From: Candidatus Latescibacterota bacterium
GTDB taxonomy: Bacteria > Latescibacterota > UBA2968 > UBA8231
Assembly: GCA_965215195.1 (NCBI GenBank)
Contig: CBDCDC010000001.1
Span: forward strand, 544,001-608,000
Direction: 5' to 3'
DNA: 64,000 nucleotides
Positions 49,692 to 55,761 of this stretch are shown in pieces. How positions within the stretch are numbered: position 1 is the first letter of the stretch; every line of letters starts with the position of its first letter. The translations under genes and the position numbers were made by a program. Under the pieces are notes generated by a model. That model saw nothing but the letters and a program-made list of their open reading frames with translations. It did not search any database and was not told the origin of the DNA.

Positions 49692-51482
49692 TTGAGCATC
49701 GTCGTCCTCGACTTCGGCGGACAGTACGCCCACCTAATCGCCAACCGCATTCGCCGCCTCCGCGTCCATGCCGAGATCCGCTCGCCAGAGACTGCGGTTG
49801 CCGATTTGCAGGACGCCGACGGGCTGATTCTGTCGGGTGGCCCGGCCAGCGTCTATGACCCGCAAGCCCCGGCGTACAATCCCTCTATTTTGGCGATGGA
49901 CAAGCCGATGCTGGGCTTGTGCTACGGCCATCAACTGCTCTGCCACCGCTTGGGCGGCCAAGTCGAGCGGGGGGCGACCCACGAATTTGGCGCGGCCTAT
50001 TTGCATGTCCACAAGGCCGAGGGGGTGCTGGCCGGGTTGGACGTGCGCGAGCGAGTGTGGATGAGCCATCGCGACCACGTCGCGGCCCTGCCGCCCGGGT
50101 TTGCCGTCTTGGGCGCGACCGCGGGCTGCCCGGTGGCGGCCATGGGCGACCCCGAGCGCAAGATATACGGCTTGCAGTTCCATCCAGAAGTGACCCACAC
50201 CGTCCGCGGCATGGGAATCCTCGATAACTTCGCCGCGCTCTGCGGCGCGGAGCGCAACTGGACGATGGAGCGCTACACCGAGCAGGCGATAGAGCGAATC
50301 CAAGAGCATGCTAAAGGGCGCAACGTCTTTTTGTTCGTCAGCGGCGGGGTCGATTCGTCGGTGGCGTTTCTCCTGCTCAACCGCGCCTTGGGCGCGGAGC
50401 GGGTGCTGGGCTTGCACATTGACAACGGCTTTATGCGCGCGGGCGAAACCGCGCTGGTCGAGCGGCTGATGAAAGGGGCGGGCCTGCACAATCTGGAGGT
50501 CGTCGATGCCAGCGCGGATTTTCTCGCCGCCACCGAGGGGATTGCCGACCCGGAGGAAAAGCGGCGGCGGATTGGCGAGGAGTTCATCCGCGTCCGCGAC
50601 CGGGCACTGGCGGCACTGGCGCTGGATCCAGACGAGTGGCTGTTGGGCCAAGGGACGCTCTACACGGATACCATCGAGTCCGGCGGCACGGAAAACGCGG
50701 CCGTCATCAAGACCCACCACAACCGCGTCGGCGTCATCGATCAGCTCTTGGCCGAGGGCAAGGTCGTCGAGCCGCTGGACCAGCTCTACAAGGACGAGGC
50801 GCGCACCTTGGGCGAAACGCTCGGCTTGCCGCACCACTTGGTCTGGCGGCATCCGTTCCCCGGGCCGGGGCTGGCGGTGCGGGTTTTGTGCAGCGAAGGG
50901 CCGAGCGCGGAGATAGCACTCGAAACGGTCGTTGAGGCGCAGAAGGTGGCGGCGACATTCGGCCTATCACTCGATGTGCTGCCGTTGCGCAGCGTCGGCG
51001 TACAGGGCGATGCGCGGACCTACGCACATCCAGCGGTGATCTCTGGTCAGAGCGAGTGGAAGACGCTGGAGGCCCTGTCCACTGAATTGACCAATCGCTT
51101 CCCGTCGATCAATCGGGTGATCTACCTGCTGGGGCCCACGCCGCGGCCACAGCAAAACCTCAAGGCCGGGTATTTGACCCGCGACCGGCTCGATCTCCTG
51201 CGCAAGGCCGATGCCATCAGCATGGAGGCGTTGGAGCGCCACGGGCTAATGCGGGAAGTGACCCAGATGCCAACGGTGCTGCTGCCGCTGTCGTCGGATG
51301 GGGTGCAAGAGAGCGTAGTGCTGCGGCCGGTTGCGACCTCCGACTTTATGACCGCACGCTTTTGCCCGTTGCCGCCGGCGTTTTTGGACGATGTGTGCGA
51401 GCGGCTGTTGGCACTAGCCGGGATTGAAGCGGTCTTCTACGACATTACCCACAAGCCGCCGGGCACGGTGGAGTGGGAGTGA
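49692..51482 (+). CDS. guaA: GMP synthase (glutamine-hydrolysing)
   Basis: LDFGGQY, GLCYGHQ, QFHPEV, SGGVDS, IKTHHN, HPFPGPGL, KPPGTVEWE. Confidence 0.96.
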   Translation: MSIVVLDFGGQYAHLIANRIRRLRVHAEIRSPETAVADLQDADGLILSGGPASVYDPQAPAYNPSILAMDKPMLGLCYGHQLLCHRLGGQVERGATHEFGAAYLHVHKAEGVLAGLDVRERVWMSHRDHVAALPPGFAVLGATAGCPVAAMGDPERKIYGLQFHPEVTHTVRGMGILDNFAALCGAERNWTMERYTEQAIERIQEHAKGRNVFLFVSGGVDSSVAFLLLNRALGAERVLGLHIDNGFMRAGETALVERLMKGAGLHNLEVVDASADFLAATEGIADPEEKRRRIGEEFIRVRDRALAALALDPDEWLLGQGTLYTDTIESGGTENAAVIKTHHNRVGVIDQLLAEGKVVEPLDQLYKDEARTLGETLGLPHHLVWRHPFPGPGLAVRVLCSEGPSAEIALETVVEAQKVAATFGLSLDVLPLRSVGVQGDARTYAHPAVISGQSEWKTLEALSTELTNRFPSINRVIYLLGPTPRPQQNLKAGYLTRDRLDLLRKADAISMEALERHGLMREVTQMPTVLLPLSSDGVQESVVLRPVATSDFMTARFCPLPPAFLDDVCERLLALAGIEAVFYDITHKPPGTVEWE

Positions 51483-52660
51483 GGCATCCTTATCTGGAAC
51501 GTCACCCGCACGAACTTACCGCCTTCGTCTTGCACAATTTCTGGCTCGGTGCCATTGAATTCCCGCATCGCTCTCCGCATCACCGGCCAGCCGCGTCCCC
51601 GCTGCTCCATCAAGCGCGCGACGAGGATGGCGTTTGCCATCAACTCGTTGCGGGACCGCGGATTACCGCCGGAGCGCACGTTCTCGACTTTCATGTGATT
51701 GGGGAGAGTTCCGGGGCTGGTCACGTCAATGCGGTCGCTGAATACTTCGAGCAGCACCCGCGAACCGGTAATCGCGTAGTCGCGATGGACGACGGCGTTG
51801 ACGATCGCCTCGCGCAGCGCCTTCTCGGGCACCAACGGCGCGTCCTCCCGGGCGAGCTCGTGGTAGCGCTCGGTCCATCCGAGGCTTCGAACCCATCCGA
51901 CCGACCGGCGTATTTGCTCGTCGAGCCGCCCTTTCCCCTCGCCAGCGAGGATGACATCCGACGCCCGATCCGCGCCCGAGTAGGCGGCGCACTGGACGAA
52001 GAAGCTCGTTGTCTGCGGGTGCGCCTGCGGCTCCTTGCCAAACGCCATCAACCCGTAGAGCGTGGGGTGTAAAACCCCGTCGAACTCGGCTAGGATGCGT
52101 CTATTGCGCAGATCGTCAGCAGTGGCGGGCTGCGGTTCCGCCTCCACGTCAAGCCCCTGAGTACGCAGGAAGGAGCGAAACTCGCCGAGGTCGATATCCT
52201 CTATCCTCGCGGCCGGAATGATTTGCTCTTCCGTCAGAACAAAGCCGAAGGTATTGTACAGCTCCTGGAGTTCGGTCGGCGACGGTTCCACGCTGCTGCG
52301 TTCGCGCCGAATCCAGACGCGCCCTCGATAGTGGATAGGTTCAAAGCCCCGCTGACGAGGCACTTCGATCCAATGCACCCATCCGTTCGGCGCGCTGTAC
52401 CGCCCACAGTGCGCCGGGATCGGCGTACTACACCCCGAATGCAGAAAACTGGTCAGCCGTTCCTGTGCGGTATCCGGATCCTCTCTCACCCCGACAATCG
52501 TCCCCCCATCATCAACCCCTAGGACGATCAGCCCGCCTTCTGCATTTGCAAAGGCGCAGATCGCCCGACCAATTCCCGAGAAGTCTCCAAGGTCGCGTTT
52601 GAATTCGGTTCGCCGACCCTCGCCCGCTTTGATGCGCTTGGTGATGTCATGCCATTCCAT
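51437..52660 (-). CDS. AlbA_2 plus HATPase_c_4 (RecG C-terminal-like) protein
   Basis: GEGRRTEFK, ICAFANAEGGLIVLGV, REAIVNAVVHRDY, SPGTLP, RNE..A, EQRGRG. Confidence 0.88.
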   Translation of the reverse strand: MEWHDITKRIKAGEGRRTEFKRDLGDFSGIGRAICAFANAEGGLIVLGVDDGGTIVGVREDPDTAQERLTSFLHSGCSTPIPAHCGRYSAPNGWVHWIEVPRQRGFEPIHYRGRVWIRRERSSVEPSPTELQELYNTFGFVLTEEQIIPAARIEDIDLGEFRSFLRTQGLDVEAEPQPATADDLRNRRILAEFDGVLHPTLYGLMAFGKEPQAHPQTTSFFVQCAAYSGADRASDVILAGEGKGRLDEQIRRSVGWVRSLGWTERYHELAREDAPLVPEKALREAIVNAVVHRDYAITGSRVLLEVFSDRIDVTSPGTLPNHMKVENVRSGGNPRSRNELMANAILVARLMEQRGRGWPVMRRAMREFNGTEPEIVQDEGGKFVRVTFQIRMPHSHSTVPGGLWVMS

Positions 52661-52919: not shown

Positions 52920-54167
52920 CTAGCAGACAAGAGTGTACTGCTTCTTGCCGCGGCGCACGATTAAGTATTTGCCGTGCAGGCCATGTCGGCGCTGCATTCT
53001 CCGCGCCATGTCCGTGCAGCGCTCGCCGTTGATGTATATTGAACCGTTTTGCACGTCTTGGCGGGCTTGGCGCTTGGAGGGCGAGACGCCGGCCGCGACG
53101 AGCAGATCGACCAGCCCCAGCTCCTCCTGACCCATCGCGTGCGTTGGCACGTCGTCAAAGCCTTCGAGGATTTCGGCCTCGGATAGGTCTTGAAACGCCC
53201 CGTAAAAGAGCGCGTACGAGATGCGTTCGGCCCGGCGAGCAGCGTCGGCCCCATGCACTAGGGTTGTTGCCTCGACAGCAAGGGTGCGCTGGGCCTCGCG
53301 CCGTGCGGGCTGGTCGCGGACGGTCTCGGCGAGCTGGCGGATCGCGTCCTGCTCCAAGAAAGTGTACGTTTTCAGGTAATCGACCACCTTCTGGTCCTCG
53401 GCGTTGATCCAGAACTGGTAAAACTGATAGGCCGAGGTCTTGGCGGCGTCGAGCCAGACCGTCCCCGCCTCGGTCTTGCCGAATTTAGCCCCGTCTGCTT
53501 TGGTCACCAGCGGGCAGGTCAGGCCAAAGGCCCGGTTGCCGGCGGAGCGGCGGATCAGATCGGTGCCGGCGGTGATATTGCCCCACTGGTCAGAGCCGCC
53601 GGTCTGCAATTCGCAGCCGTACTTTTTATTGAGGACCAAGAAGTCATACGCCTGTAGCACCATGTAGCTGAACTCGGTGTAGGAAATACCCGTTTCGAGG
53701 CGCGAGGCGACCGATTCCTTGGCCAACATGTAGGGGACGGGAAAGTGCTTGCCTACGTCGCGCATAAAGTCGATGGCCGCGAGTTGGCCGAGCCAGTCGT
53801 AGTTATCGACCACAATCGCCGGGTTGGGGCCGTCGAATTCGAGGAAGCGCGCTAGCTGGGCTTTGACCTGCTGAGTCCACTCGGCCACCACGTCGGTGGC
53901 ATTGAGCTGGCGCTCCTCGGTCTTGCCCCCTGGATCGCCGATCAGGCCGGTGCCGCCGCCAGCCAAGGCAATGACCTTGTGCCCGGCGAGCTGGAAGCGG
54001 CGCAGGAGCAGGATCGGCACGAGGTTGCCCACCGTCAGGCTGTCGGCGGTCGGGTCAAAGCCGTTGTAGAGCGCGATCGGACCGGCCGCGAGGCGCGCGG
54101 CGAGGCCGTCGAGATCGGTGGCTTGGTAGATCAGGTTGCGGAACTGAAGATCGGGTATGATGTTCAT
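52920..54167 (-). CDS. tyrS: Tyrosine--tRNA ligase
   Basis: GFDPTADSL, GGSDQWGNI, KFGKT, S4 domain. Confidence 0.97.
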   Translation of the reverse strand: MNIIPDLQFRNLIYQATDLDGLAARLAAGPIALYNGFDPTADSLTVGNLVPILLLRRFQLAGHKVIALAGGGTGLIGDPGGKTEERQLNATDVVAEWTQQVKAQLARFLEFDGPNPAIVVDNYDWLGQLAAIDFMRDVGKHFPVPYMLAKESVASRLETGISYTEFSYMVLQAYDFLVLNKKYGCELQTGGSDQWGNITAGTDLIRRSAGNRAFGLTCPLVTKADGAKFGKTEAGTVWLDAAKTSAYQFYQFWINAEDQKVVDYLKTYTFLEQDAIRQLAETVRDQPARREAQRTLAVEATTLVHGADAARRAERISYALFYGAFQDLSEAEILEGFDDVPTHAMGQEELGLVDLLVAAGVSPSKRQARQDVQNGSIYINGERCTDMARRMQRRHGLHGKYLIVRRGKKQYTLVC

Positions 54168-54191
54168 CGCATTTCCTTAATTTATGGGCAT

Positions 54192-54218
54192 AAAAAAAGC
54201 CCCTGTAACCAGGGGCTT
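54192..54218 (-). terminator. Intrinsic terminator in the tyrS leader (attenuator)
   Basis: aagcccctg-gtta-caggggc followed by U7, 24 nt upstream of the tyrS ATG. Confidence 0.85.
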
Positions 54219-54249
54219 GTAACGCGGTTGAGACGACAAAGCGAGCGCA

Positions 54250-54309
54250 CTATCCCCCTTTTTGACGCGAGGTATAATAGTAGTAGCGATCGGCGCGTAG
54301 GGTCTGCAT
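54250..54309 (-). CDS. Tyr-rich leader peptide MQTLRADRYYYYTSRQKGG (19 aa)
   Basis: GGAG RBS, ATG 54309, four tandem Tyr codons TAC TAC TAT TAT, TAG stop; lies upstream of the terminator and tyrS. Confidence 0.85.
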   Translation of the reverse strand: MQTLRADRYYYYTSRQKGG

Positions 54310-54328
54310 GGTTCGTTCTCCGCGCAAA

Positions 54329-54357
54329 AATATAATGGCGACCTCTATCCCCGTCAA
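54329..54357 (-). promoter_or_regulatory. Sigma70-like promoter of the tyrS leader
   Basis: TTGACG-17 bp-TATATT. Confidence 0.7.
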
Positions 54358-54501
54358 TCAGGAGGCTAACCGACGCTAAGAGCCTATACGAAAATTGATT
54401 TCCTGATAATAAAAAGGTCTTGGCAACCTACGTTTTCCTTACCTATTGACCCTCAATCAAGTCCGAATTGTCGACCGTTTGACATAATTTTCGCAGCGGA
54501 A

Positions 54502-55761
54502 TCAATCGCCCAGATAGCCCTGTGCTGCCCAAATTTTCCTCGCCAGCTTTTTAGCCTCGGCGTCCGGTTCGATTGCGCCCAAAATACTGCTCGGCGGCTG
54601 CCCCTGCTTTTTGCGCTCCGGGTCGGGCGACCAGTCGTCTTGGGCGTATTTTCGGCGCACTGACTCGCGGCGGAAGTCGGGTACTTCCATTGGTGCCGAG
54701 TCGTTTAGTGCCGACCGCCACGCTTGGATACCGGCGATGCTCATGTCGAGGCCGCGGTACACGTCGAGATAGGGCGGCTCGCCGGTGCGGATGGCCTCGG
54801 CAAAGTGATAGCTGGTGAAAAAGTCGCCGCCGCCGTGTCCGGTGCGCGTGGCTTGGGTGTGACGCACCGGGAAGTCGGGCCTGTACACCGTTTCAACCGG
54901 ATCGCTCTTGCGCTTTTCCCACGGCTCGTACCACACGCGCAGCCGCTGTTTGTCGCCGTGGCGGCAGTTTTCCATCACGCCCTTGTTGCCGTGGATGCGG
55001 ACGTAGTTGCCGTGGCCGCGCAGCGCACCGTGCAGGGACTTCACCACCGCGTCGTTGTCCATCCGGCAGATGATCACCGCGGCCGTGTCGCCTCGGTACA
55101 CGTGCAGCGTTTGGGTGGGGTCGGCAAAATCAAAGGGGATGACAAAGCCATTCACCTTTACCGGCCGGGTGTCGGTGATGTACATGACCGGGGCGATGGA
55201 ATGGGTGCAGTAGTACGTGGCGGGGATCCAGTTGCGCCAGTGGTCGCGTCCGCAGCTACGCGCCAGTTTCACTTCGGGCGGGTCGGGGTGGACGTACTCT
55301 CCTTCGCCGTATTTGAACTCGCCGACGCGGCCCTTTTGGTAGAGCCGCTTCATCTCTTGGTTGAAGACCATGTAGGGATAGTTCTCGGCGAACATGTAGG
55401 TTTTGCCGCTTTGCTCAACCGCTCGCGCCAGCGCCACGCCTTCGCCCAAGGTGTGGCAGGCGGCGGTTTCGCTCATTACGTGTTTGCCGGCCTTGAGTGC
55501 TTTGATGGCAAACGGGGCGTGTTGGTGGAAGTAGTTGGCCAGCACAACCGCGTCCGTGTCGCAGCCGAGGAATTCGTCGTAATCGACGAACGTCGGCACG
55601 CTGAGTGCCTTGCCTTCTGCGCTGAGGCGCTCTTCCCAAATGTCGCAGATGGCGACCAGTTCCATGCCGGTCGCGGCGGCCGCCTGCATGAAGGAGCGTC
55701 CGCGACCAACGCCGACTACGCCGACGCGGATGGGACGTTGTTTGTTGCGTTTTTTAGTCAT
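54502..55761 (-). CDS. Gfo/Idh/MocA oxidoreductase
   Basis: IRVGVVGVGRG, AGKHVMSE, YMFAENY, YYCTHS, GHGGGD. Confidence 0.9.
   Translation of the reverse strand: MTKKRNKQRPIRVGVVGVGRGRSFMQAAAATGMELVAICDIWEERLSAEGKALSVPTFVDYDEFLGCDTDAVVLANYFHQHAPFAIKALKAGKHVMSETAACHTLGEGVALARAVEQSGKTYMFAENYPYMVFNQEMKRLYQKGRVGEFKYGEGEYVHPDPPEVKLARSCGRDHWRNWIPATYYCTHSIAPVMYITDTRPVKVNGFVIPFDFADPTQTLHVYRGDTAAVIICRMDNDAVVKSLHGALRGHGNYVRIHGNKGVMENCRHGDKQRLRVWYEPWEKRKSDPVETVYRPDFPVRHTQATRTGHGGGDFFTSYHFAEAIRTGEPPYLDVYRGLDMSIAGIQAWRSALNDSAPMEVPDFRRESVRRKYAQDDWSPDPERKKQGQPPSSILGAIEPDAEAKKLARKIWAAQGYLGD

Follow-up and report, generated by a model that had tools for sequence, protein, structure and literature searches.

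A conserved tyrosine-codon leader and terminator upstream of tyrS in a family of Latescibacterota: a probable ribosome-mediated transcription attenuator

Control of aminoacyl-tRNA synthetase genes by translated leaders has been described for pheST of E. coli and for trpS, leuS, cysS and a hisS paralogue, as set out in the accessible portions of a series of reports (PMC1262725, PMC2659441, PMC13714241, PMC9413887, PMC2965389, PMC4833913, PMC3082878, PMC11802643, PMC8632094, PMC6429828), one of which, in the part at hand, assigns tyrosine control to T-boxes (PMC1262725). Tyrosine codons do enter regulatory leaders at genes of aromatic biosynthesis: according to the available sections of these papers, the Phe-Tyr-Phe leader aroR precedes aroF in C. 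glutamicum, with no reported response to Tyr (PMC11802643), Shewanella aroF is listed as an 'attenuator sensing tyr-tRNA' (PMC2659441), and upstream ORFs rich in Phe and Tyr occur at shikimate genes (PMC6429828). An earlier note on the DNA considered here had pointed both to the ribosome-mediated attenuation of E. coli pheST, which the accessible text of PMC11802643 states, and to the use of T-boxes by tyrS in Firmicutes. Of the 33 loci most distant among our TyrRS matches, 19 have a T-box motif (matched by regular expression), including all 17 from Paenibacillus. The earlier note knew of no leader-peptide attenuator of tyrS; full-text searches, in which subscription papers and supplements were thinly covered, likewise found none, and a term search of a supplement of PMC8632094 gave no matches.

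The locus lies on the minus strand of a 64,000-nt stretch of a Candidatus Latescibacterota bacterium genome (GCA_965215195.1, CBDCDC010000001.1:544,001-608,000), referred to below as the window, and all positions are numbered within it. Its features, in the order of transcription, are as follows.

54352..54357 (-), TTGACG, the -35 hexamer of a sigma-70-type promoter (pattern scan)
54329..54334 (-), TATATT, the -10 hexamer, 17 nt from the -35 hexamer (pattern scan)
54318..54321 (-), GGAG, Shine-Dalgarno sequence of the leader ORF, 8 nt 5' of its ATG
54250..54309 (-), leader peptide ORF of 19 codons, MQTLRADRYYYYTSRQKGG* (translation; in-frame conservation in relatives)
54274..54285 (-), the Tyr control codons, four in tandem (TAC TAC TAT TAT), 7 codons before the stop
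54269..54281 (-), segment 1, the strand of a protector hairpin, predicted to pair with segment 2 in ribosome-free RNA
54245..54259 (-), segment 2, the predicted switching strand, comprising a G-run, the stop codon and the GCGC that follows
54210..54226 (-), segment 3, CGCGT plus the 5' arm of the terminator, predicted to pair either with segment 2, as the antiterminator, or with segment 4
54192..54218 (-), intrinsic terminator, with a hairpin at 54218-54197 of 9 bp and a 4-nt loop, U7, about -17 kcal/mol
54198-54192 (-), U tract of the terminator, 7 nt
52920..54167 (-), tyrS, tyrosine--tRNA ligase, 415 aa (TIGR00234, 399 bits)

Each element named in the earlier note, namely the promoter, the ribosome-binding site, the four-Tyr ORF and the strong terminator just before tyrS, was recovered where the list places it. 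The tyrS gene starts only 24 nt past the U tract, so its transcription must read through the terminator. Both the promoter and the hairpin are the sole sites of their kind in 53500-54700; shuffled sequences yield on average 0.4 promoter-like and 1.5 terminator-like sites, and therefore neither is significant by itself. Transcription probably begins near 54323-54321, some 12-14 nt 5' of the leader ATG, and the GGAG is predicted to form the extreme 5' end of the transcript. This tyrS gave the single match, and is thus the only copy found, in a 6.1-Mb assembly that is 95% complete. On the opposite strand, at 54360-54372 (+), lies an AGGAGG with no ATG after it; in many relatives a divergent gene uses the same word as its ribosome site, and here the word looks like the relic of such a gene, now absent from the window. 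Elsewhere in the neighborhood, a 407-aa ORF without an NCBIfam match (51437-52660, -) runs into the end of an ORF for GMP synthase (596 aa, 49692-51482, +), the last 110 residues of which fall outside the best-scoring matched stretch.

From its sequence and modelled folds, this leader is very probably a classical ribosome-mediated transcription attenuator tuned to the supply of charged tRNA-Tyr, and its most likely role is to let the cell make more TyrRS when that supply runs short. RNA polymerase would start 12-14 nt or so ahead of the leader ATG with a ribosome trailing behind. Were Tyr-tRNA scarce, the ribosome would wait at the Tyr codons and cover segment 1, and the free G-run could then pair with the 5' arm of the terminator before the 3' arm exists, allowing the polymerase to enter tyrS. 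With Tyr-tRNA plentiful, the ribosome would reach the stop codon, which lies within segment 2, and would cover that segment; the terminator would then form and the transcript end near 54192. If no ribosome were present, segments 1 and 2 would pair with one another, and the terminator should form in that case too.

The mutually exclusive pairings that the earlier note had proposed both appear in predicted folds of the window leader. In the free RNA, the Tyr-codon region pairs with the region of the G-run and stop codon; when the Tyr codons are masked, the G-run, which sits 15 nt past them, pairs with CCCCU of the terminator 5' arm, and GCGC pairs with GCGU (-13.7 kcal/mol). Ribosome positions were modelled by masking 13 nt beyond the A-site codon, a length that reflects the size of the ribosome footprint, and by ending the RNA before the 3' arm of the terminator. 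Under these conditions, the predicted probability that the terminator C-run of the window is sequestered is 0.76 with the ribosome at the first Tyr codon, 0.99 at the last, 0.16 at the stop and 0.03 with no ribosome. Among the 62 family leaders described below, the C-run is predicted to be paired upstream (P>0.5) in 56 for a stall at the first Tyr, in 58 at the last Tyr and in a single leader at the stop, as the alternative states envisaged in the earlier note would entail. The figure without a ribosome is 30 of 62, because of which the protector hairpin, in the model, is not uniform among leaders. The predicted antiterminator thus overlaps the 5' arm of the terminator, being free upon a Tyr stall and covered by a ribosome at the stop. 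In full-length RNA the terminator of the window wins in every state, including the stalled one (P 1.00); the antiterminator being weaker at equilibrium, the modelled switch would have to be kinetic, and proven attenuators of E. coli look alike in this model. For the five that were folded (thrL, trpL, pheM, hisL and pheL), it gives arm sequestration of 0.57-1.0 when the ribosome is stalled; with the ribosome at the stop the value falls to about 0 in all but one, and the terminator is dominant in 9 of 10 stalled states at full length. Under the arm definition used for E. coli, the window leader reaches 0.54-0.66 with a stalled ribosome and 0.30 with the ribosome at the stop.

Conservation of the arrangement was assessed in a family of 76 genomes. 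A tyrS match was present in 70, one of them limited to the 3' half of the gene, leaving 69 upstream regions. The unit sought before tyrS was an ORF 10-35 codons long that contains Tyr and stops at most 75 nt from a U-tailed hairpin; it was found in 62 of the 69 genomes and in 15 genera (29/29 genomes of the window's genus and 33/40 elsewhere in the family), so that upstream ORFs with Tyr codons do precede tyrS in relatives, the check that the earlier note had asked for. For three of the 62 leaders the terminator was re-picked nearer to tyrS, and for one the start codon was re-picked by hand. A sigma-70-type promoter pattern lies upstream of 58 leaders and GGGG occurs near the leader stop in 53, whereas a Shine-Dalgarno-like word is found in 27 of the 29 leaders of the genus and in only 5 of the other 33. 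The peptides themselves diverge freely across the family and contain from one to six Tyr residues (for example MTRTIAYRYYYYASGG, MKNCYRYYHLEISGG and MESHTPTTVSDRRYRRAEAIRTGGTER). In 28 of the 29 leaders of the genus the last Tyr codon is nevertheless 6-8 codons from the stop, though the number of Tyr codons varies from 2 to 6, a constancy to be expected if the position of the ribosome matters.

The seven genomes lacking a counted unit are heterogeneous. In G042 the contig begins 101 nt upstream of tyrS and a terminator is visible; G051 has the Tyr frame and the terminator with no in-frame start codon; and G079 retains an Arg-Tyr ORF followed by a hairpin without a U tract. No leader was found upstream of tyrS in G055 and G056, nor before tyrS in G048, in which the tyrS match starts inside the gene. 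The tyrS of G049 (G049:C18:16967-18211) has three in-frame stops and no leader. A separate irregularity concerns G066, in which some 40 codons are inserted in frame in the middle of tyrS (G066:C1:1164558-1165922), unless this is an assembly error. In a tree of 45 TyrRS proteins, those of the family group in a single clade (100/99); the two genomes without a leader fall within it, a placement that suggests loss of the leader in these two. Outside the family, no leader was found directly before tyrS at 18 loci of families f2-f4, nor at the 18 usable loci among 20 others (two being unanchored).

The leader ORF also bears the mark of a coding sequence. Taking one leader per genus (15), Tyr accounts for 48 of 289 in-frame codons; the two remaining frames have 1 of 274 and 5 of 274, a contrast favored by the choice of leaders among Tyr-containing ORFs. 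Relative to control ORFs, Tyr is enriched 14-fold and every other residue at most 1.7-fold; among 300 control short ORFs before terminators, none has at least four Tyr and ten have at least two. A scan of the whole 6.1-Mb genome for a Shine-Dalgarno sequence, a short ORF with a run of one residue and a U-tailed hairpin gave seven matches, with a Tyr run only at this locus. When the leaders of the genus were aligned (28 of 29, one containing N being omitted), every gap within the ORF was of 3 or 6 nt, and every gap past the stop of 1 or 2 nt. Conservation, coding signature, geometry and modelled switching agree with attenuation by a ribosome that would sense Tyr-tRNA, and favor the interpretation of the earlier note.

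Other details of codon context raise the question of what precisely would slow the ribosome. The same RNA switch might respond more broadly to decoding speed, through the queuosine modification of tRNA-Tyr, the supply of His, or slow formation of the Arg-Tyr bond. Consistent with this, 16 of the 62 leaders, all in the window's genus, have a His immediately before the Tyr run (RHY); TAT makes up 69 of 96 Tyr codons in leaders of that genus compared with about 30% in the genome, which has one tRNA-Tyr (GUA); and an Arg-Tyr pair occurs in 14 of the 15 genus representatives (shuffle mean 6.6), with 22 of the 32 Arg codons concerned outside the genus being CGA, which makes up about 6% of Arg codons in the window genome. 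Yet Asp and Asn, the other residues with queuosine tRNAs, are not enriched in leaders (0.8-fold and 0.5-fold), the His/Tyr toggle is a single C/T change in which either base can pair with the same G of the segment 1:2 helix, the Arg-Tyr pair may be simply inherited, and the regulated gene is that for TyrRS itself. We regard such broad sensing as improbable, and retain charged tRNA-Tyr as the probable signal.

A related feature is the reduced form of the leader. Only one Tyr codon is present in 7 of the 62 leaders, always in an RRY context: all seven have Arg-Arg-Tyr with the rare CGA codon, six have RRYRR, and the single TAC is invariant within a conserved CGA-TAC. In genus g22, the main source of these one-Tyr forms, the leader ATG lies 7 nt past the -10 box in 10 of 10 cases, which suggests translation from a leaderless mRNA. 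An Arg-Leu-Arg stall motif is described in antibiotic-sensing leaders in the accessible part of PMC8632094; by analogy with the R-X-R motif of such peptides, we speculate that the Arg context may amplify the stall, one Tyr codon then being enough.

The statistical support for the pairings is uneven, and bears on a second alternative, that the terminator is a constitutive dampener which cuts tyrS expression by a fixed ratio, or ends an upstream transcript, the Tyr ORF being incidental to the pairing. All 15 genus representatives have a switch score above the mean of their dinucleotide shuffles, and only 5 of them were matched by no more than 2 shuffles in 100; the combined p of 7e-7 is overstated, as the leaders share ancestry. 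For the window taken alone, neither the switch score, equalled by 7 of 100 shuffles, nor the duplex energy, for which 63 of 300 shuffles were as good, is significant, and two of nine terminators of the genome with a CCCC arm (a set that may include this one) reach the same switch score of 0.8. The whole leader of the window folds no better than shuffles (z -0.29). Across genera, segment 2 prefers its own terminator arm over those of others (18 leaders, permutation p 0.003) and segment 1 its own partner (19 leaders, p 0.008), both values being overstated by shared ancestry and the preference being driven by genera with long stems and not by the window. Within the genus, helices are 86-100% paired over 28 rows (terminator 100%, lower helix of segments 1:2 92%), one inner pair of the antiterminator is broken in 13 of 27 rows, and covariation in the 28-row alignment exceeds column shuffles for neither structure. 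A dampener could draw further on the upstream gene at 55761-54502, which is on the same strand (-). Against it, the gene upstream of the promoter varies among relatives and is often divergent while the unit persists; indels that keep the reading frame, and the in-frame excess of Tyr across 15 genera, would be unexpected of a non-coding element; and cognate leaders stand at four other loci of the genome. Passive dampening is therefore very improbable beside attenuation by a translating ribosome. The narrower proposal that the hairpin is the terminator of the upstream gene was ruled out by its spacing and by the variable upstream context.

An Rfam scan of 53000-55000 returned six matches, all far under their gathering scores (the best being Phe_leader, 21.2 bits versus 55, E 1.6), and the T-box model RF00230 had no match there or in the genome (95% complete; the control was positive in 5 of 14 genomes). 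Hence a T-box-like or protein-bound switch, such as TyrRS autoregulation by tRNA mimicry with UAC as a specifier and not a translated codon, is scarcely credible, for while the seven leaders with one invariant TAC and the T-box motif upstream of tyrS in Bacillota, which are among the nearest non-family TyrRS, could be cited for it, the scan gave nothing above chance, and the leader is only about 130 nt long with a variable number of TAT/TAC codons in frame with a start codon.

In RNA data, small shares were seen in 17 runs classed or guessed as RNA, including sponge metagenomes, which are no proof of habitat, and four RNA runs were represented by assembled contigs of relatives. One contig spans the leader and terminator and continues into tyrS; another, of 160 nt, ends near the U tract but extends into the promoter, and may stem from DNA and not RNA. 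These two were counted neither for nor against attenuation.

The tyrS leader has counterparts in the same genome. Synthetase genes were located by Pfam searches, and of 24 loci inspected for synthetases and amino-acid biosynthesis, four have a cognate leader: thrS, trpE(G), aspS2 and ilvC. That of thrS, a candidate Thr attenuator, combines a promoter, a leader with eight Thr (MISALLTVASASCPSRFPSGLTPTTTTTTTICAG) whose ATG lies 7 nt past the -10 box, and a terminator (G000:C2:3632220-3632420, +, L196). The fused trpE(G) gene has a Trp leader, MKFSSHTRRWWRAWHFPSRERGASIR (RRWWRAWH, 3 Trp), and a terminator (G000:C2:1378050-1378260, +, L190). Before aspS2, the second of two aspS genes, stand an Asn/Asp leader, MMTRHNDRTHNNPLVPLRAF, and a terminator (G000:C2:2293930-2294090, +, L197), and the other aspS has no such leader. 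At ilvC the leader is rich in Leu, Ile and Val (…VWVRLRLLLLDLLIIGRPIK) and a U-tailed terminator is not clear (G000:C1:365150-365400, -, L198). Immediately before the pheS-like gene lies a terminator, unaccompanied by a Phe leader. At a further site, G000:C2:2566800-2566950 (-), a promoter-like sequence, a very basic ORF of 31-38 codons (…RSRRQRRKKRLKRR…) and a terminator precede an oxidoreductase gene.

The sister families show a related arrangement. In f2 and f4, tyrS follows trpE-G-D-C-F, and four of five fetched operons (L183, L185, L186, L187) have a mixed Trp/Phe/Tyr leader and terminator before trpE, one including RYYYY; the fifth stretch began inside trpE. The window genome instead has trpE(G)-trpG-trpD-trpC-trpS, with trpS inside the operon and a Trp-only leader ahead. 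Judged from gene order and leader content, the mixed leader of trpEGDCF-tyrS would correspond to the separate Trp-only and Tyr-only leaders found here. That the family re-specialized its Tyr sensor along with this change of operon, and cut it to its minimum, is a tentative and rather doubtful extension of these observations.

If the proposed mechanism holds, tyrosine would join the amino acids under leader-peptide attenuation, and tyrS, a gene whose known control is the T-box, would join the synthetase genes. It would also imply coupled transcription and translation in an uncultured phylum, together with an attenuation regulon of tyrS, thrS, trpE(G), aspS2 and ilvC. In nature the leader exists in 62 variants that have from one to six Tyr codons and are either Shine-Dalgarno-led or leaderless, a series from which the minimal codon number of such a sensor might be approached, and the leader is a compact candidate for a tyrosine biosensor.

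Among known systems, the T-box of Bacillota tyrS is alike in its target gene and in its logic, uncharged tRNA-Tyr leading to more read-through at an intrinsic terminator; it differs in that a T-box binds tRNA directly, and none was found in the window genome. Leaders of aromatic biosynthesis, as far as the accessible portions of the reports describe them, also place Tyr codons in a regulatory upstream ORF, with mixed codons and biosynthetic targets, whereas the window leader is dominated by Tyr and its target is a synthetase. Synthetase attenuators recognized by comparative genomics share the arrangement of a cognate-codon upstream ORF and terminator before the synthetase gene, although the portions of those studies at hand include no tyrS or Tyr-only leader. 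A further likeness is to pheM-pheST of E. coli, the attenuation of which is stated in PMC11802643. It has a short leader ORF of cognate codons, alternative antiterminator and terminator structures, and a synthetase gene downstream; pheM also gives the same switching pattern under the same folding model. The present locus departs from it in having Tyr for Phe and tyrS for pheST, its own promoter, a place in the phylum Latescibacterota, and a distance from the last control codon to the stop of 7 codons versus 2 in pheM. The mechanism proposed is that of textbook attenuation, and what is gained lies in its scope and not in its principle.
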